Shown in pieces: positions 32,251 to 59,666 of a stretch of DNA of 64,000 bases. The first letter of the stretch is position 1. Each line of letters begins with the position of its first letter. Made by a program: the position numbers and the translations under genes. This stretch comes from Candidatus Nomurabacteria bacterium (GTDB lineage Bacteria > Patescibacteriota > Minisyncoccia > Phycocordibacterales > UBA918), in the NCBI GenBank assembly GCA_020632095.1, contig JACKGF010000002.1, positions 16,502 to 80,501 on the forward strand, written 5' to 3'. The notes below the pieces were generated by a model. It saw only the letters and a program-made list of their open reading frames with translations. It searched no databases and was not told where the DNA came from.

Positions 32251-33682
32251 GTAATAAAGAAGTAGAAATGTCCTCCCTAAAGAAATAGAAATGTCCTCCC
32301 GCAAGGGAGGACATTTCCTGTATGTTGTTGGTTCATGCACAACAACAAAAACATCATACTGACGGAAGCAGAAAAAGAAAAGGGAGAAATCATTAAAGGG
32401 TGTACTGAGGGTGATTATACAAATAGTGAAGCAGCAGAAAGACTAGGTTTGTCAGTTAGGCAGGTACGAAGACTAAAGCGTAAAGTTGAGGTGTTTGGAG
32501 TGGAAGGAATTCTGCATGGTCTCAAGGGGTCGCAGTCACACCGCAAGATAGACACAAAACAAGAAAAGAAAGTGTTAAAGTTCCTGAAAAAGAAAGACCA
32601 TCACGACTTCGGTCCAACGTTTGCGATGGAAAAGCTTGAGGAATTAGAGAACATCATTCTTGATGTTGGTACCGTTCGTCGCATCATGGTCGACGCTGAT
32701 CTCTGGAAACCCAAACAACAACGAATCAAACAATCACACAGACAGTGGCGCGAGCCAATGCTTCGCTATGGTGAGCTCATACAATACGATGGAAGCTACC
32801 ATGACTGGAACGAAGACGGTGAGGAGGAGTGCCTTCTCAAAGCCATCGACGACGCAACGAGTATTGTTACGAAAGCCGTATTTGACGATCATGAAGGTAT
32901 CGTGCCCACCTTTCGCTTCTGGTGGAAGTATATCGAGCGCCACGGGCGTCCACGGGCCATATACCTAGACAAATTCAGCACATACAAGGTCAATCATAAA
33001 AGCGCACAGGATAACATTCACTTCATGACACAGTTTGAGCGAGCCATGGAAACATTGGACATCAAGATTATCACTGCCCACTCACCAGAAGCAAAAGGTC
33101 GTGTCGAAAGGGGCTTTCGCACACATCAGGACAGGCTCGTGAAGGAACTTCGTCTGGCAAAGAAGAAGAACCAAGACGAGATGAATGACTTTCTCGAACA
33201 CACCTATCTCCCCAAGCACAACGGAACGTTTGGCAGAACTCCACGTGACCCCAGAGACGCTCATCGGCCACTGACAGACATTCTCAAAAAGAAACTCTCG
33301 TCCATATTCTCCAAACACTATCGCCGCATCGTTAAGAACGACTTCACTATTCAATGGAATGGACGATGGTTTCAGCTTCTTAACAATCAACCGACTACGG
33401 TATACAAAAAAGATGAGGTGATTATGGAAGAGTGGCTCGATAACTCCATACACATCCGTCACACACGAAACAAAGAAGTGTATCTGATATATCAAGAATT
33501 ACCGAACAAACCGAAACAGGTACGCCGACCACCGACTGTCTTGGAGCGAAAGAGTACCGCACACAAGCCGGCACCTGATCATCCATGGAGAAAGAAAAGA
33601 TAAAAAAACAAAAATTTGCTCTGACGTATTACACAACGTATTAATTAACTTGAACAGAGGACACTTCTACTTCACTGCAACA
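32251..33682 (+). mobile_element. IS copy 1 (~1432 bp, rve-type DDE transposase; ISNCY/IS1202- or IS481-like)
   Basis: 100% identical to 58235-59666. Terminal inverted repeats GAAGTAGAAATGTCCTC / GAGGACACTTCTACTTC. Flanked by a 17-bp direct repeat ctaacaacaaaacgtat. Confidence 0.85.
32335..33603 (+). CDS. DDE transposase (N-terminal HTH, rve-like core)
   Basis: HTH motif (AAERLGLSVRQVRRLKRK) and a D...D...E triad (YDGSYHDW, IYLDKFSTY, PEAKGRVERGFRT). Confidence 0.85.
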   Translation: MHNNKNIILTEAEKEKGEIIKGCTEGDYTNSEAAERLGLSVRQVRRLKRKVEVFGVEGILHGLKGSQSHRKIDTKQEKKVLKFLKKKDHHDFGPTFAMEKLEELENIILDVGTVRRIMVDADLWKPKQQRIKQSHRQWREPMLRYGELIQYDGSYHDWNEDGEEECLLKAIDDATSIVTKAVFDDHEGIVPTFRFWWKYIERHGRPRAIYLDKFSTYKVNHKSAQDNIHFMTQFERAMETLDIKIITAHSPEAKGRVERGFRTHQDRLVKELRLAKKKNQDEMNDFLEHTYLPKHNGTFGRTPRDPRDAHRPLTDILKKKLSSIFSKHYRRIVKNDFTIQWNGRWFQLLNNQPTTVYKKDEVIMEEWLDNSIHIRHTRNKEVYLIYQELPNKPKQVRRPPTVLERKSTAHKPAPDHPWRKKR

Positions 33683-49398: not shown

Positions 49399-50019
49399 CT
49401 AAACCTTCAAAATTACCACTTCGCCGGACATGGCACTAACGTCTTTTTTCTTTAGGGTTAGTTTATCAACTGGTTTTAGACCTTCTATACTCTCTTCTTT
49501 GAGAAAGGTTTTGAGAGCGGCGGCGTCATACTGCATTGGAATAATAAGCTTAGCTTCAAGTTTAACAGCCAACTTGGAAGCTTGAGGCACTTCTAGGATG
49601 TCTCCGCCACCAATTGGTAGAAACAAAATGTCTATATCACCAAACTCACCTAGAATCTTTGGGTCTATTTCTGGATCATTCAAGGCACCGAGAAAGATGA
49701 TATTCGTATCCTCGAGATGAACTTGGTAAATAGTGTTGTAATGATCTTGTTTATCGTAAATAGTTTTGACGCCAAAACCACGAGCGGTCACCTGACCAAT
49801 CTCGTATTCGCCTGGACCGTCAACCACAAAAGGTTGTTTTGAACCATGGGCTACTTGTTCGACACCATTAAAATCTGGGTGCCACATAGTGACGAAGGCC
49901 ACATCGGCGCCAAATTTAACTGACTCTAATTTTGACTGCTTTGCAATTGGATTGAAGGCTATGGTCGTGCCACCAAAAGTTAATTTGAGACATTGACCGC
50001 CGTGATATGAAATAACCAT
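49399..50019 (-). CDS. MBL-fold metallo-hydrolase
   Basis: The N-terminus MVISYHGGQCLKLTFGGTTIAFNP is typical of UlaG-like MBL proteins. The annotated ORF extends to 50199 through a GC hairpin and a promoter-like region, so the start at 50019 is preferred. Confidence 0.65.
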   Translation of the reverse strand: MVISYHGGQCLKLTFGGTTIAFNPIAKQSKLESVKFGADVAFVTMWHPDFNGVEQVAHGSKQPFVVDGPGEYEIGQVTARGFGVKTIYDKQDHYNTIYQVHLEDTNIIFLGALNDPEIDPKILGEFGDIDILFLPIGGGDILEVPQASKLAVKLEAKLIIPMQYDAAALKTFLKEESIEGLKPVDKLTLKKKDVSAMSGEVVILKV

Positions 50020-50192
50020 AGTGCGTACAGTATACGACAAACCGGCCGGAACGCGAAGCGTTCCGGCCCCAAACCCCAAACAACCAAAACTTCCCATAAT
50101 TCTAGAAGCTGAAAATAATAACCATTTAGGGTTCGGAATACTATGAATTTCGAACCTTAGACCAGTCTCTATATAAAACCCCTCAAAAAGGC

Positions 50193-50220
50193 TTGACAAA
50201 TATTTTATATATGCTAGTAT
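50193..50220 (+). promoter_or_regulatory. sigma70-like promoter at the edge of the GC-rich island
   Basis: TTGACA-N16-TAGTAT lies in AT-rich sequence immediately before the GC jump. Confidence 0.4.
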
Positions 50221-50225
50221 ATAGA

Positions 50226-51329
50226 GGCTTTGAGTTCGAAATGATTCAGGCCGCCCGATTTGGCTTCGCGATTCATTGCGATTGCTCTGCGCGACCTGAC
50301 GTCGAACTTAGGCTGAGGAGAGAGGTAAAGGAGAAATTTTCGCCAATACCTTACGAGTTCCGCTTCGCCCCGTACTGATCTTGAATCAGATGGCGCAGAT
50401 GGACTTGCCGCTCCAAAAAAGGTGGACATGCCTCCCATGTCCGAACTAGTCCAGCGCGCCGCCGAGGCCGCATGTAGCGCTCGCCCGTTTGGGTGCGCTG
50501 GACCACAACCGTTCGAAGTTGGCGCCAGATCATACTGCCGCCGTTTGCTCAGCCGGACATCGCGATTTGCTTTTGTGCATTTGCGCGCTGCCCGCCCGTC
50601 TATAGCAGGCTTCGAACACAACCCACAATGATCACCTCTGCAAGCCCGATCATTTGGATTGGTAAGCAGATACAAACTAAAAGGAGGGGAAAATGCGACA
50701 CCAAACGTCGACCAAAATCTAAATCTCGATGATCGCCGGCCACTAGTTCGCTTCCTCTTGGTAGGCGAACGCAGCACGGCTTCAAATCCAAGAAAAGCCC
50801 CTTCTTATTAAGGAGAAGGATTTCAAACGCTCAAGAGGCGGCGGCACAAATGAGAGGTCCGCCCCCTATGCCTGAGCAATGGCCGTTTACTGGGAGATCC
50901 CCGTCATGTTGGATAAGTACTGACTGGTGGCGCCTCCCTTTCCAATCCCGGCGCTGTCAAGATAAATTGGGATGGAACTCGAGGTCGATGGCTCTTGAGC
51001 CATCAGCCATCGACCTAGCTGGCCGGTCGCTTGCCACGATGCTTCATCTTCGTCGGCGGTCGCGACACCAGCACAAAAGCCCTCCCTCAGCGCCCTGAGG
51101 GAGGCCCTACAATGAAGCGCACGTTGCGCACAACCCTGGGAGCCCCCAGCCATGTTCTTCAACCGATCCGAATAAGCGCTGTCACCGGCGCTAGACAATA
51201 AATGGTGCCCGATCATAGTGGTCGGGATGAACAACCACAAAAGGAGGTAAAAGATGAATTGGCCGTAGCTAAGTTCCCTCGATGACCCGGTTCAGCTGAC
51301 ATAACAGCCACCGGGTCTTTACTTTTTAT
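50226..51329 (+). other. about 1.1 kb GC-rich, ORF-poor, hairpin-dense segment (candidate large structured ncRNA or decayed foreign DNA)
   Basis: No ORF with a plausible start. Many stable stems, including 50449-50460/50492-50503 (12 bp with a G-U pair) and 51079-51106 (a perfect 10-bp stem). It ends with an intrinsic terminator at 51284-51329. Confidence 0.3.
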
Positions 51330-51457
51330 ATTAAAAGTTAATCAAGCAAGCTTGATTAACCATACAAAACCCCACACATACCATTGACTTTCTCACATTT
51401 TCGTGTATAATAATTCAAATATTGCACACCCTGTTCTACAACAACAAAGGAGAAATA

Positions 51458-51910
51458 ATGTCCGCAGCCGCTCAACCGATTACTCTCCCACCAAACGACT
51501 ACTTCAGTGTCGAGATGTGGGCCCAAAGCCAGTACGGTGACGTTATCGCCAAATTGGAGAAAGGAGGTTATTCTCACATCGACCGCAATGTCGCACCGGC
51601 CGTCACCAAACCTGCACGCCGACGCAAGTCGCGCCAGAACCTGACGCAGGTTGTCACAACGACTCCTGTCAGGATACCTTTCGAGGCTCCGAACATCCAG
51701 CGCAACACTCACGAGGTAGGACTCTTCCAGAACGACAGGAAGTGGTCTCGGAAAGGTCCTGGGCGGCGGAGTAATGGCCGCAAGCATCAACAAGGCTGGA
51801 GGGCAGTAGCTAGCCCGCGCCATGAAGAGCGCCATGCGACCATCCGTCACTTCCGCGAGACCCCTCAATTGGTCATCGACCAATGGGAGCGGGAATTCGA
51901 GCGGCTCTAA
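51458..51910 (+). CDS. hypothetical basic protein (GC-rich gene)
   Basis: Canonical promoter TTGACT-N16-TATAAT at 51384-51411. An AAAGGAG SD precedes the ATG. Terminators lie at 51960-52028. Confidence 0.5.
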   Translation: MSAAAQPITLPPNDYFSVEMWAQSQYGDVIAKLEKGGYSHIDRNVAPAVTKPARRRKSRQNLTQVVTTTPVRIPFEAPNIQRNTHEVGLFQNDRKWSRKGPGRRSNGRKHQQGWRAVASPRHEERHATIRHFRETPQLVIDQWEREFERL

Positions 51911-52383
51911 GAGGCTGGACTCAAGGAGCTCTATCGGAGACACGGCTTCTAGCCAACCCTCGGGGCAAAGCTTCTCTTCGCCCCACCAAGACCCAAACAC
52001 TCACGTGTGCGGGTCTTTTTTATATCTTATTACTAAATCCATACTATTATTACTTTTTACACTTTCATTGAATTTTCGGTTGTTATAAATTTTAAGCGTT
52101 CACGGGGATCGCGTACTTAATGAAGTCAGTATTCGTCGGAGCGTGCTCAAAATTTATGATAACGGAAATCTCCCTCTCCCACAATTAGAATGCTCGACAA
52201 ATAATCCTTTTTATACTATATTTCCCCTACCTTTTAGGTATTTATCAGTTCTAGCGACACACGTTTAACCCTGCGTTCACGGACTACGGCCGGTTGGACG
52301 AAAATCTTCTCAGGAAGATTTTCGTCCAACCTCGCGAAATGGTTACGCAGACGCGTGTCGTCGGAATAAACACATAAGTTAAT

Positions 52384-53505
52384 ATGTTTGGACTAACTAA
52401 GTCTAAGGACGTAGCTGTTGAACCAACAGCTACTGGTGTTATGGACAAGTATTTGGCCGACAGCCCAGTACCTCCAGTAGAAGGAGAAGTAGTAGAAGGA
52501 ACTGTCTCAGCGATTGGCCGAGCGAGAGTTTATATTGATATCCAACCTTTCGGAACAGGTATCATTTACGGACGTGAATACATGAACGCACGGGACATCC
52601 TGCGAAAAGTTCACCCTGGTGACACCATCGCTTCAAAGGTAGTAATGCCAGAAAACGAAGATGGCTACATCGAACTTTCACTTAAGGAAGCTAGACAAGC
52701 TCTCATCTGGGCTGATGCAGAATCAGCCGTTAAGAAAGGAACTATTCTTAGTCTTGAAGTTAAGGAAGCCAATAAAGGCGGACTTATTATCGAATGGCAA
52801 GGAATTCCTGGTTTCCTACCAGCTTCACAACTCTCATCAGAAAACTACCCCCGTGTATCAGATGGCGACAAGGACAAAATCCTCACTGCTCTCAACGAAC
52901 TTATCGGCAAGCATTTGTCAGTAGTAATGATTACAGCTGATCCTAAGGAGCATAAACTAATCTTCTCTGAAAAGGGGCTACAAGAAAAAGAGGAAAAAGA
53001 AGAGAAGGTAAACAAATACGACGTTGGAAATATTGTTAAGGGTGAAGTAACCGGCGCAGTAGACTTCGGAGTCTTTGTAAAACTTGAACCGGGTCTTGAA
53101 GGTTTGGTACACATTTCTGAACTAGATTGGGGCTTAGTTGAAGACACCAAAGCAATGTACAAGGTTGGTGACGAGGTTGACGTTAAGGTAATTGAAGTGA
53201 AAGATGACAAAATTTCTCTTTCTATCAAGCAACTTAAAGAAAACCCATGGTCAACTGCCGCTAAGCGATTTGTGAAAGACCAAATTGTTGATGGTGTAGT
53301 GATTAAGTACAACAAGCACGGCGCTTTGGCATCTATTGAAGAAGGAGTAGCTGGTTTAGTACACGTTTCAGAATTTGAAACAGAAGAAAAGCTTAAGGCT
53401 GCTCTGTCTCTCGGCAGTGTCTACAAGTTCAAGATTACCCTCTTTGAACCAAACGAACAGAAAATGACTCTTTCTTACAAAGAAGGAAACGAAGCAACAA
53501 AGTAA
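52384..53505 (+). CDS. rpsA: S1 RNA-binding-domain protein (ribosomal protein S1-like)
   Basis: Four S1-like repeats (GTVSAIGRARVYIDI..., GEVTGAVDFGVFVKL..., GVVIKYNKHGALASI...). Confidence 0.8.
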   Translation: MFGLTKSKDVAVEPTATGVMDKYLADSPVPPVEGEVVEGTVSAIGRARVYIDIQPFGTGIIYGREYMNARDILRKVHPGDTIASKVVMPENEDGYIELSLKEARQALIWADAESAVKKGTILSLEVKEANKGGLIIEWQGIPGFLPASQLSSENYPRVSDGDKDKILTALNELIGKHLSVVMITADPKEHKLIFSEKGLQEKEEKEEKVNKYDVGNIVKGEVTGAVDFGVFVKLEPGLEGLVHISELDWGLVEDTKAMYKVGDEVDVKVIEVKDDKISLSIKQLKENPWSTAAKRFVKDQIVDGVVIKYNKHGALASIEEGVAGLVHVSEFETEEKLKAALSLGSVYKFKITLFEPNEQKMTLSYKEGNEATK

Positions 53506-58234: not shown

Positions 58235-59666
58235 GTAATAAAGAAGTAGAAATGTCCTCCCTAAAGAAATAGAAATGTCCTCCCGCAAGGGAGGACATTT
58301 CCTGTATGTTGTTGGTTCATGCACAACAACAAAAACATCATACTGACGGAAGCAGAAAAAGAAAAGGGAGAAATCATTAAAGGGTGTACTGAGGGTGATT
58401 ATACAAATAGTGAAGCAGCAGAAAGACTAGGTTTGTCAGTTAGGCAGGTACGAAGACTAAAGCGTAAAGTTGAGGTGTTTGGAGTGGAAGGAATTCTGCA
58501 TGGTCTCAAGGGGTCGCAGTCACACCGCAAGATAGACACAAAACAAGAAAAGAAAGTGTTAAAGTTCCTGAAAAAGAAAGACCATCACGACTTCGGTCCA
58601 ACGTTTGCGATGGAAAAGCTTGAGGAATTAGAGAACATCATTCTTGATGTTGGTACCGTTCGTCGCATCATGGTCGACGCTGATCTCTGGAAACCCAAAC
58701 AACAACGAATCAAACAATCACACAGACAGTGGCGCGAGCCAATGCTTCGCTATGGTGAGCTCATACAATACGATGGAAGCTACCATGACTGGAACGAAGA
58801 CGGTGAGGAGGAGTGCCTTCTCAAAGCCATCGACGACGCAACGAGTATTGTTACGAAAGCCGTATTTGACGATCATGAAGGTATCGTGCCCACCTTTCGC
58901 TTCTGGTGGAAGTATATCGAGCGCCACGGGCGTCCACGGGCCATATACCTAGACAAATTCAGCACATACAAGGTCAATCATAAAAGCGCACAGGATAACA
59001 TTCACTTCATGACACAGTTTGAGCGAGCCATGGAAACATTGGACATCAAGATTATCACTGCCCACTCACCAGAAGCAAAAGGTCGTGTCGAAAGGGGCTT
59101 TCGCACACATCAGGACAGGCTCGTGAAGGAACTTCGTCTGGCAAAGAAGAAGAACCAAGACGAGATGAATGACTTTCTCGAACACACCTATCTCCCCAAG
59201 CACAACGGAACGTTTGGCAGAACTCCACGTGACCCCAGAGACGCTCATCGGCCACTGACAGACATTCTCAAAAAGAAACTCTCGTCCATATTCTCCAAAC
59301 ACTATCGCCGCATCGTTAAGAACGACTTCACTATTCAATGGAATGGACGATGGTTTCAGCTTCTTAACAATCAACCGACTACGGTATACAAAAAAGATGA
59401 GGTGATTATGGAAGAGTGGCTCGATAACTCCATACACATCCGTCACACACGAAACAAAGAAGTGTATCTGATATATCAAGAATTACCGAACAAACCGAAA
59501 CAGGTACGCCGACCACCGACTGTCTTGGAGCGAAAGAGTACCGCACACAAGCCGGCACCTGATCATCCATGGAGAAAGAAAAGATAAAAAAACAAAAATT
59601 TGCTCTGACGTATTACACAACGTATTAATTAACTTGAACAGAGGACACTTCTACTTCACTGCAACA
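58235..59666 (+). mobile_element. IS copy 2 (identical to copy 1)
   Basis: Same terminal inverted repeats. The 17-bp direct repeat acaccagtctaaaagct occurs at 58218-58234 and 59666-59682. The insertion point coincides with the stop codon of the upstream HisRS-like gene. Confidence 0.85.
58319..59587 (+). CDS. DDE transposase (identical to 32335-33603)
   Basis: 422 aa, identical to the copy-1 transposase. Confidence 0.85.
   Translation: MHNNKNIILTEAEKEKGEIIKGCTEGDYTNSEAAERLGLSVRQVRRLKRKVEVFGVEGILHGLKGSQSHRKIDTKQEKKVLKFLKKKDHHDFGPTFAMEKLEELENIILDVGTVRRIMVDADLWKPKQQRIKQSHRQWREPMLRYGELIQYDGSYHDWNEDGEEECLLKAIDDATSIVTKAVFDDHEGIVPTFRFWWKYIERHGRPRAIYLDKFSTYKVNHKSAQDNIHFMTQFERAMETLDIKIITAHSPEAKGRVERGFRTHQDRLVKELRLAKKKNQDEMNDFLEHTYLPKHNGTFGRTPRDPRDAHRPLTDILKKKLSSIFSKHYRRIVKNDFTIQWNGRWFQLLNNQPTTVYKKDEVIMEEWLDNSIHIRHTRNKEVYLIYQELPNKPKQVRRPPTVLERKSTAHKPAPDHPWRKKR

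Follow-up and report, generated by a model that had tools for sequence, protein, structure and literature searches.

The question raised by this locus is what a GC-rich stretch of DNA with no evident gene is doing beside the gene for ribosomal protein S1. The DNA analyzed, referred to here as the window, is a stretch of 64,000 nucleotides (nt) from Candidatus Nomurabacteria bacterium (assembly GCA_020632095.1, contig JACKGF010000002.1, forward strand, 16,502 to 80,501). Its GC over 64 kb is 0.426 (42.6%), and it carries gyrA, rpsA, pth, and seven scattered tRNAs (tRNAs by ARAGORN). This content marks it as part of a small chromosome of the candidate phyla radiation (CPR, or Patescibacteria) and not as phage DNA. 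Only one GC-rich stretch that is poor in open reading frames (ORFs) is present in the 64 kb, and it is called unit 1. The island in which it lies is flanked by a gene for a metallo-beta-lactamase-fold (MBL) protein on the minus strand and by rpsA on the plus strand (52384-53505). A second GC-rich unit, unit 2, stands before rpsA and encodes a protein of 150 amino acids (aa). Unit 1 is tentatively read as an expanded member, the longest known, of a previously undescribed and fast-evolving family of micro-ORF RNAs, in which the fate of the RNA would be set by translation. The anatomy of unit 1 and its placement in this family can be put forward with good confidence. The translation-linked mechanism is possible but doubtful.

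GC goes from 0.35 at 50101-50250 to 0.53-0.67 in the island and then to 0.34 at 51301-51400. No second copy of the island was found within the window, and a repeat scan found no direct or inverted repeats flanking it as an insertion mark. The island, including the 150-aa ORF, is 100% identical on five public contigs from independent assemblies, one of them a metagenome-assembled genome of Candidatus Kaiserbacteria (GCA_020428725.1). The features of unit 1 are the following.

50193-50220, plus strand: promoter of unit 1, TTGACA-16-TAGTAT, 10/12 matches, with a TG-extended -10
50227-51329, plus strand: unit 1, a predicted non-coding transcript of ~1102 nt and 54% GC (stop density, periodicity, no protein family, folding)
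50226-50314, plus strand: predicted 5'-terminal stem-loop in which GGCUUUGAGUUCGAA pairs with UUCGAACUUAGGCU (minimum free energy and centroid folds, a single-sequence prediction only)
50316-50337, plus strand: Shine-Dalgarno (SD)-like run, AGGAG followed by AAAGGAGAAAT, lacking a start codon (repeat and SD scans)
50449-50460/50492-50503, plus strand: 12-bp hairpin with one G-U pair, which is a C-A mismatch on the other strand (inverted-repeat scan and folds)
50644-50722, plus strand: ribosome-binding module copy A, with a hairpin (50646-50662), an A-rich spacer, SD AAAGGAGG (50680-50687), and a 9-codon ORF
50799-50820, plus strand: hairpin containing AAGGAG, with no start codon behind it (SD scan and folds)
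50890-50923, plus strand: duplicate GGGAG-hairpin-plus-ATG element with the 5-codon ORF MLDKY (50906-50923), resembling 51136-51157
50982-51016, plus strand: perfect 12-bp hairpin, local z-score -5.2, with an alternative inner 8-bp hairpin, GATGGCTC/GAGCCATC
51081-51201, plus strand: 10-bp hairpin (51081-51104, 3' arm GAGGGAGG) and, 7 nt on, a 29-codon ORF (51112-51201)
51119-51206, plus strand: conserved 3' module, with a GGGAG hairpin, MFFNRSE (51152-51175), TAA, a GCGC hairpin (51175-51192), and TAGACAATAAAT (51192-51203)
51207-51268, plus strand: ribosome-binding module copy B, with a hairpin (51208-51226), SD AAAGGAGG (51240-51247), and an MNWP-stop ORF (51254-51268)
51284-51329, plus strand: intrinsic terminator of unit 1, stem 51284-51291/51310-51317 and a T-rich tail to 51329 (folds; local z-score -6.9)

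Judging by the promoter, transcription would start near 50227. The plus strand was chosen for unit 1 on the basis of its promoter and terminator, of G-U pairs within the hairpins at 50449-50503 and 50646-50662, and of the four AAGGAG motifs, all of which lie on it. AAGGAG is found four times on the plus strand of the 1.1 kb and never on the minus strand; there are 31 in the 64 kb, and ~0.5 would be expected (Poisson P ~0.002). The 9-codon ORF of copy A, MRHQTSTKI (50693-50722), is arranged as AAAGGAGG-5 nt-ATG, and the 4-codon ORF of copy B, MNWP-stop (51254-51268), as AAAGGAGG-6 nt-ATG. Further SD-like runs, at 50316-50337 (50327) and at 50811, have no start codon. The 11-mer AAAGGAGAAAT in the former recurs as the actual SD of the 150-aa gene. 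The terminator was missed by a simple terminator scan, as its stem has an internal loop. TTCGAA occurs four times within 50149-50616 with no enrichment across the window, and these copies were taken as helix-forming palindromes only. T-run hairpins at 50442-50424, 50820-50799, and 51104-51081 were considered as minus-strand terminators and rejected; that strand has no promoter or gene to terminate. A possible internal promoter, TAGACA-16-CATAGT at 51192-51219, was also rejected, the same motif in a related locus (L007) being directly followed by a terminator.

A reading made earlier from the letters alone (the sequence-only reading) had described a promoter-to-terminator region without ORFs and had proposed a large non-coding RNA (ncRNA) or a fragment captured from a GC-rich donor. 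The anatomy that it gave holds. The promoter, the rise in GC, and the fall in GC after the terminator at 51284-51329 are all present, as are the stem needing a G-U pair (50449-50460/50492-50503) and the two strong-SD ORFs of 9 and 4 codons (50693-50722 and 51254-51268). Its statement that there are only short ORFs without starts is correct in that none looks like a gene. Some do have starts, for example the 29-codon ORF at 51112-51201 behind GAGGGAGG.

The body of unit 1 is non-coding. There are 12, 12, 21, 15, 14, and 12 stop codons in the six frames of 385 codons, and ~15 are expected from composition. Three-base periodicity in unit 1 gives a chi-square of 16 (p 0.014), versus 55 for the MBL gene, 125 for rpsA, and 176 for gyrA. 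No Pfam, NCBIfam, or PHROG match was found for stop-free segments of at least 40 aa, with Pfam applied to nearly all of these segments and NCBIfam and PHROGs to the nine longest. The frameshifted protein gene that the sequence-only reading had named as a finding that would refute it has therefore left no trace in stop density, in periodicity, or in family scans of the long stop-free segments in every frame. Gene callers annotate minus-strand ORFs of 187 aa and 109 aa in the island, and these are singletons in the protein collection. Within unit 1, full homologue searches were confined to two ORFs of the minus strand (187 aa and 134 aa) and returned nothing beyond self-matches (1.84 billion representatives, 5.8 billion proteins). 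The called 187-aa ORF has a higher GC at the second codon position (GC2) than at the first and third (GC1, GC3) and is rich in Arg, Ser, and Ala, as in spurious ORFs of GC-rich DNA. Stop-codon reassignment was considered and rejected, since all three stop codons break every frame. The pattern is thus accounted for neither by a frame in decay nor by reassignment of a stop.

Known RNA classes do not account for the unit. At the gathering score, Rfam 15 finds only tRNAs in the window. Over 49800-52300, on both strands and at E <= 10, there was no relevant match to GOLLD, ROOL, OLE, HEARO, raiA, RNase P, or other Rfam 15 families. The four matches obtained were at chance level, the best being P26 at 29.6 bits (threshold 36), which lies on the minus strand opposite hairpin 50982-51016. 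ARAGORN found no tmRNA in the window. The earlier judgment that this is not rRNA, tmRNA, or RNase P is upheld by Rfam and ARAGORN. Membership in the GOLLD/ROOL/OLE class, or analogy to it, is not supported, because there is no Rfam match at E <= 10 and the body is unconserved in ~80 related genomes. The two 555-nt halves of unit 1 have plus-strand fold z-scores of -2.8 and -5.4 against shuffled sequence, with the local excess concentrated in hairpins at 50975, 51200, and 51275. By these folding models unit 1 is more structured than its composition predicts. A non-coding, plus-strand, promoter-to-terminator unit, as proposed from the sequence, agrees with both the folding and the lack of a coding signal.

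The relatives indicate what kind of unit this is. A scan of species-representative genomes with the MBL protein gave 80 loci (numbered L below). More than 50 relatives have MBL and rpsA side by side in divergent orientation, with a gap between them of 0 to 2.1 kb. Unit 1 lies in this gap, oriented as rpsA, with its own promoter and terminator. A plus-strand unit is found at the same site in eight close relatives, L007-L012, L014, and L016 (MBL identity 76-85%). The promoter (C)TTGACAAATATTTTATATATGCTAnTAT is common to the units. It gives 29-nt matches of 86-97% in L012, L014, L016, and L025, and it was also read in L008-L011. Nine species, including that of the window, have a unit with a homologous promoter. 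In the relatives, short ORFs behind strong SDs are followed by an intrinsic terminator and then by the rpsA promoter and leader. Their units are 180-538 nt long, versus 1102 nt in the window, which is two to six times longer. GC of the unit exceeds that of its locus by 4-13 points across the nine species, and the plus-strand fold z-scores of the relatives' units are -2.4 to -6.9 (8/8). As far as these sequences indicate, the range of the family is the MBL-rpsA gap in a subclade of Paceibacteria/Kaiserbacteria.

Near its 3' end the window unit also shares a module of ~90 nt (51119-51206) with L007, L012, and L014. It consists of an SD hairpin, a tiny ORF, TAA, a GCGC hairpin, and TA(G)ACA-TAAAT. 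The pair 51180/51187 of the GCGC hairpin is U-G in the window, A-U in L007, and C-G in L012 and L014; this is the only hairpin that can be compared, and in four species. A profile built from the four copies found no further copies in ~0.95 Mb of related loci plus the window, and its E-values of 1e-17 to 1e-20 are matches to the training set. Outside of such parts, no counterpart of 50225-52030 was found in 81 related loci by blastn and nhmmer, whose matches were confined to the rpsA leader (52190-52380) and short pieces. Searches of plasmid and phage collections, of metagenome and viral contigs (protein-guided scans), and of metagenome contigs (motif scan) likewise gave no homologue of the body. 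Conservation in relatives, whose absence (along with that of transcription) the sequence-only reading had named as refuting its candidate RNA, is divided: the promoter, the 3' module, and the micro-ORFs are shared, and the bulk of the body has no homologue by blastn or nhmmer. Full-text literature searches found no description of such units in CPR bacteria.

The micro-ORFs recur at set positions. M-x-W-P-stop with an SD stands just 5' of the terminator as MNWP in the window, MTWP in L010, and MCWP in L011. M-x-W-Y-x-E-stop takes the same position in L012 (MTWYAE-stop) and L014 (MNWYPE-stop). From the stop codon to the terminator stem there are 15 to more than 30 nt (six species). The first short ORF of the relatives has H-x-Pro-Pro, an X-Pro-Pro motif, in L007, L008, L010, L012, and L016, and often an F-Y-F...N-L-D motif. 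Within the window unit there are internal duplicates. The segment 50644-50693 resembles 51207-51253 (z 3.6) and 50890-50911 resembles 51136-51157 (z 2.7). The extra length of the window unit thus appears to stem, at least in part, from duplicated hairpin-SD-ATG modules. A possible pairing of the micro-ORF sequence UUGGCCGUAG with the rpsA leader sequence CUACGGCCGG was noticed by eye in the window and L011 and was dropped; it is not conserved in L010, L012, and L014.

The gap is variable among the relatives in other ways. Between L010 and L016 the rpsA leaders are ~96% and the MBL sides ~80% identical (flanks 76-96%), yet the unit bodies, in gaps of 589 and 920 nt, cannot be aligned. Unalignable units between like flanks suggest that the locus is a hot spot of recombination or replacement. 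The more distant relatives L046 (gap 1-1835), L023, and L017 contain one to three promoter-to-terminator units that are GC-rich, mostly ORF-free, and unrelated in sequence to the window. The gap of L046 has 56% GC, versus 43% for its locus.

A mechanism can be proposed for the family. A member, as read here, consists of a near-consensus sigma-70 promoter, a GC-enriched and well-folded body, and its own intrinsic terminator. It carries at least one predicted initiation module (hairpin, A-rich spacer, strong SD, and ATG), with ORFs of 4 to ~50 codons, and its final micro-ORF is M-x-W-P-stop or M-x-W-Y-x-E-stop. The window unit appears to have grown, in this species alone, from 180-540 nt to 1102 nt, at least partly by duplication of modules and their divergence. 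The RNA itself would be the product of unit 1. Ribosomes on the micro-ORFs could govern the fate of this RNA, that is, its stability and the efficiency of termination. Pro-stop and polyproline frames are known for slow termination or elongation. The Trp-Pro-stop ends would be expected to terminate slowly, and the X-Pro-Pro frames would be slow too. Unit 1 could then be a translation-sensing regulatory RNA beside the S1 gene. It is also conceivable, though improbable, that the units form a new class of fast-evolving, GC-rich structured RNAs, assembled from repeats of a ribosome-binding module (hairpin, A-rich tract, strong SD, and a micro-ORF with a Trp-Pro-stop end), that capture or sense 30S subunits or ribosomes, as a capacity sensor or decoy, and are linked to expression of S1 and of the hypervariable protein. 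The 1.1 kb copy of the window might, with equally little likelihood, be the multi-module "giant" of such a class.

Several observations weigh against reading unit 1 as a translation-governed micro-ORF RNA. For ~900 of the 1102 nt no homologue could be detected in the ~80 related genomes or in the public collections searched. With no homologue of the body there is no structure with covariation support, so much of it could be neutral. The minus-strand halves fold as well as the plus-strand ones (z -3.4 and -4.5), and the local z-score over 150 nt has a mean of only -1.65, versus -0.67 in the flanks, and is driven by a few hairpins. In the gaps, the minus strand has just as many short M-x-W ORFs as the plus strand (5 versus 5), so the argument from them is one of position, SD, and strand in five species only. 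The micro-ORF peptides are poorly conserved. The first short ORF of the window looks frameshifted, its N-L-D-like frame being out of register with the ATG and leaving 9 codons. Strong promoters lie beyond the terminator in the window (at 51384-51411 and at 52194-52222) as well as in L012 and L014, and no conserved antiterminator pairing was found in the six species compared. A classical attenuator for the downstream gene was considered and is unlikely, as each downstream gene has its own promoter and there is no conserved antiterminator.

The same evidence bears on other explanations. The locus may be mostly non-functional and hypervariable, made of duplicated and decaying remnants of small genes and ribosome-binding sites among which only the promoter, the terminator, and perhaps one micro-ORF matter. 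Such debris would be in keeping with the unalignable bodies of L010 and L016 between flanks of 76-96% identity, the gap of 0 to 2.1 kb among relatives, the SDs without a start codon at 50327 and 50811, the seemingly frameshifted first short ORF, the internal duplications, and the TAA of the 150-aa gene where its orthologue reads on. However, GC enrichment and negative fold z-scores are found in all nine species despite unrelated sequences, and neutral decay at 42% GC should erase both. The promoter is kept near consensus everywhere and the sequence is identical in five independent assemblies. This explanation is rather unlikely. It is unlikely as well that unit 1 is a new large structured ncRNA of ~1.1 kb in the GOLLD/ROOL/OLE size class, acting in trans or as a ribonucleoprotein and consisting mostly of functional structure. 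A promoter-to-terminator unit of 54% GC in a genome of 42.6% GC with no coding signal, z-scores of -2.8 and -5.4, and many long perfect hairpins is what such an RNA would look like, a 1.1 kb spacer is unusual in a streamlined CPR genome, and the smaller relatives are likewise GC-rich and well folded. Deep conservation and covariation are what define the known ornate RNAs, and these hallmarks are absent here. Rfam gave no match at E <= 10, the two strands fold equally well, and the unit is partly built of internal SD-ATG duplicates. Even the closest relatives do not share the body, and their units are only 180-540 nt long.

Capture of a fragment from a GC-rich donor, whether host or mobile element and with or without a decayed gene, would explain a GC jump of ~12 points with sharp edges, a 150-aa ORF that is GC-rich too (GC3 0.64 versus ~0.38 in its neighbours), and the lack of homologues for most of the sequence in close relatives. 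This idea, the other half of the sequence-only reading, is unsupported because the relatives have related GC-enriched units in the corresponding position, which share the promoter, the 3' module, and the micro-ORFs. The only relative of the 150-aa protein in 5.8 billion proteins is a syntenic orthologue, no repeats flank the island, and there was no plasmid or phage match and no protein-family trace in any frame, GC-rich bacterial genomes being outside the nucleotide search. Capture is very unlikely. A hidden protein gene that is frameshifted, recoded, or written in an alternative genetic code is scarcely credible. A weak, consistent three-base GC phase does run across the region (chi-square 16, p 0.014) and gene callers annotate minus-strand ORFs of 187 aa and 109 aa. 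Against these stand the occurrence of all three stops at a random rate in every frame, so that no single reassignment opens one, the lack of homologues or family matches, and the spurious-type make-up of the called ORFs (GC2 > GC1/GC3, rich in Arg, Ser, and Ala).

The translation-governed micro-ORF RNA can be compared with known systems. Leader-peptide attenuators and arrest-peptide sensors include trpL, pheL, tnaC, ermCL, and mgtL/mgtP, with Trp codons in trpL, Pro-stop in TnaC, and Pro codons in mgtL/mgtP. Like leader-peptide attenuators, unit 1 has a short ORF with a strong SD a few tens of nt upstream of an intrinsic terminator (these are sequence features, and translation is predicted), and it lies upstream of a translation-related gene. 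Like trpL, TnaC, and mgtL, it has rare or slow codons at the decisive place, Trp-Pro-stop here and X-Pro-Pro in the first short ORF of the relatives. Unlike the arrest-peptide sensors, its final ORF has 4 codons, too short to act via the ribosomal exit tunnel. Unlike attenuators, it has no conserved antiterminator fold that could be found, its downstream genes have their own promoters and would not need read-through, and it includes several initiation modules along with additional structured RNA of up to 1 kb. Dual-function small RNAs that encode a peptide include RNAIII/hld, SgrS/SgrT, and SR1/SR1P. As in these, unit 1 is predicted to be an independent, structured promoter-to-terminator transcript with a small frame in a mostly non-coding RNA. 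It differs from them in its far shorter and barely conserved peptides, in the extreme turnover of sequence between species, in its size of 1.1 kb, and in having no known target or seed region.

GOLLD (RF01998), ROOL (RF03087), and OLE (RF01071) are large ornate bacterial RNAs whose structures have been presented (PMC12286853). Unit 1 resembles these RNAs of 0.6-1 kb in size class, lack of an ORF, GC-richness relative to the genome, and many helices. It differs in having no covariance-model match, in a body that is not conserved beyond one species, and in repeated SD-ATG modules, which those RNAs lack. Pipelines that search long GC-rich intergenic regions accept a motif only after homologues with covariation have been found (PMC6429828, PMC11109978, PMC8723152). 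Unit 1 was found by the same signal as their candidates, a long GC-rich intergenic region in an AT-richer genome, and for the bulk of it the homologue and covariation step fails. Unit 1 matches no described RNA family. Its kind is itself known, a small structured transcript with micro-ORFs like a leader or a dual-function small RNA.

Unit 2 and the rpsA leader follow unit 1 on the plus strand.

51384-51411, plus strand: promoter of unit 2, TTGACT-16-TATAAT, 11/12, conserved in L006
51458-51910, plus strand: gene for the 150-aa basic protein, isoelectric point 10.85, with SD AAAGGAGAAAT at 51446-51456
51911-52021, plus strand: 3' region of unit 2, with 13 in-frame codons to TAG 51950-51952, a hairpin (51962-51984), and a terminator (51988-52021)
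52194-52383, plus strand: rpsA promoter TCGACA-17-TATATT (52194-52222) and structured leader (52217-52383)

The second GC-rich unit of the sequence-only reading, with its promoter (51384-51411), 150-aa basic protein (51458-51910), and terminator (51988-52021), is present. The upstream flank of its promoter resembles that of the unit 1 promoter. In 5.8 billion proteins the only relative of the 150-aa protein is the syntenic P0002 on contig L006, at 39% identity. At the DNA level L006 is 75-93% identical to the window in unit 2. In the first 82 codons there are 25 identical codons, 19 synonymous-only differences, and 38 non-synonymous differences, and the core K-P-A-R-R-R-K-S-R-Q..T-Q-V-V-T-T-T-P is preserved through synonymous changes. 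Because of these synonymous-only changes the ORF is considered a real gene. Its GC3 is 0.64, versus ~0.38 in neighbouring genes. An AlphaFold2 model of the protein is mostly disordered and of low confidence (pLDDT 56.7). The protein is weakly similar to syntenic proteins of 124-202 aa in L012, L014, and L015. In L012 the gene order is that of the window, with unit 1, a protein gene, and rpsA, each with its own promoter. This order and the shared GC enrichment speak against a recent origin in a GC-rich donor. Unit 2 is a separate gene in the same variable locus and encodes a rapidly evolving, largely disordered basic protein.

The syntenic proteins of 124-202 aa in the MBL-rpsA gap are acidic. 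They are encoded in L012 (536-1105), L014 (258-827 and 1345-1719, duplicated), and L015 (485-1093), and they have N-terminal motifs N-R-F-G..G and L-D-D-G-T-D-L-G-F and a C-terminal motif R-x-x-N-G-x-R-K-C-N-K-R-x-T-I-R-R. The stop of the 150-aa ORF, TAA at 51908-51910, is CGA in the L006 orthologue, which reads 13 codons further. The window retains these 13 codons in frame (EAGLKELYRRHGF, closed by TAG at 51950). As far as the comparison of the two genes can tell, a recent nonsense change or read-through of the stop is indicated. From 51884 to 52000 (L006 545-660), the gene end and the 3' untranslated region, including hairpin 51962-51984, are more conserved than the coding region, which is ~75% identical where alignable and has an unalignable middle. 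The conserved 3' end may reflect an RNA or DNA element that is itself conserved, or else recombination.

The 5' leader of rpsA is conserved in at least 18 related species. It has a long-range helix in which GCGACACACG pairs with CGCGTGTCG. In an alignment of 18 species the inner helix has compensatory double changes in 5/6 pairs and no broken pair. Its apical hairpin (52292-52331 in the window) varies in length and is absent in five species. No Rfam family matched the leader. It is a candidate for a new S1 autoregulatory leader. As a new cis-regulatory RNA it is better supported than unit 1, and it is the most solid RNA result of this analysis.

On the other side of the island, the annotated ends of the MBL gene conflict, being 49399-50199 (266 aa) in NCBI and 49399-50097 (232 aa) in ENA, both on the minus strand. 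Similarity to relatives starts at residues 13-27 of the 232-aa form. For this reason the true start is probably the ATG at 50019-50021 (MVISYHGG...), near 50021. A perfect GC-rich hairpin, GGCCGGAACGCGAAGCGTTCCGGCC at 50044-50068, lies ~25 nt from this probable start codon and is preceded by a conserved ATAGTG..TAGTATACG. Hairpins at this site are also found in L007, L011, L015, L021, and L022 with differing stem sequences, and covariation is apparent by eye. The hairpin could be an MBL leader element or a bidirectional terminator. Elsewhere in the window there are two 422-aa ORFs, 32335-33603 and 58319-59587, both on the plus strand. They give identical Pfam results (N-terminal winged-helix HTH_29, HTH_28, and HTH_23), and an antisense ORF of 137 aa is common to both. 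The pair probably represents an insertion sequence transposase present in two copies.

The island cautions against calling a large ornate RNA from nothing more than a textbook promoter and terminator around a long GC-rich intergenic region. CPR bacteria (Patescibacteria) have tiny genomes, few described regulatory RNAs, and no genetic tools, and any conserved non-coding unit in them is informative. If the family is real, it would be a syntenic and easily recognised RNA locus beside an essential translation gene. It would show the threefold growth of such a unit via duplicated ribosome-binding modules. It would also offer a minimal ORF of 4 codons, M-x-W-P-stop, that can be tested.

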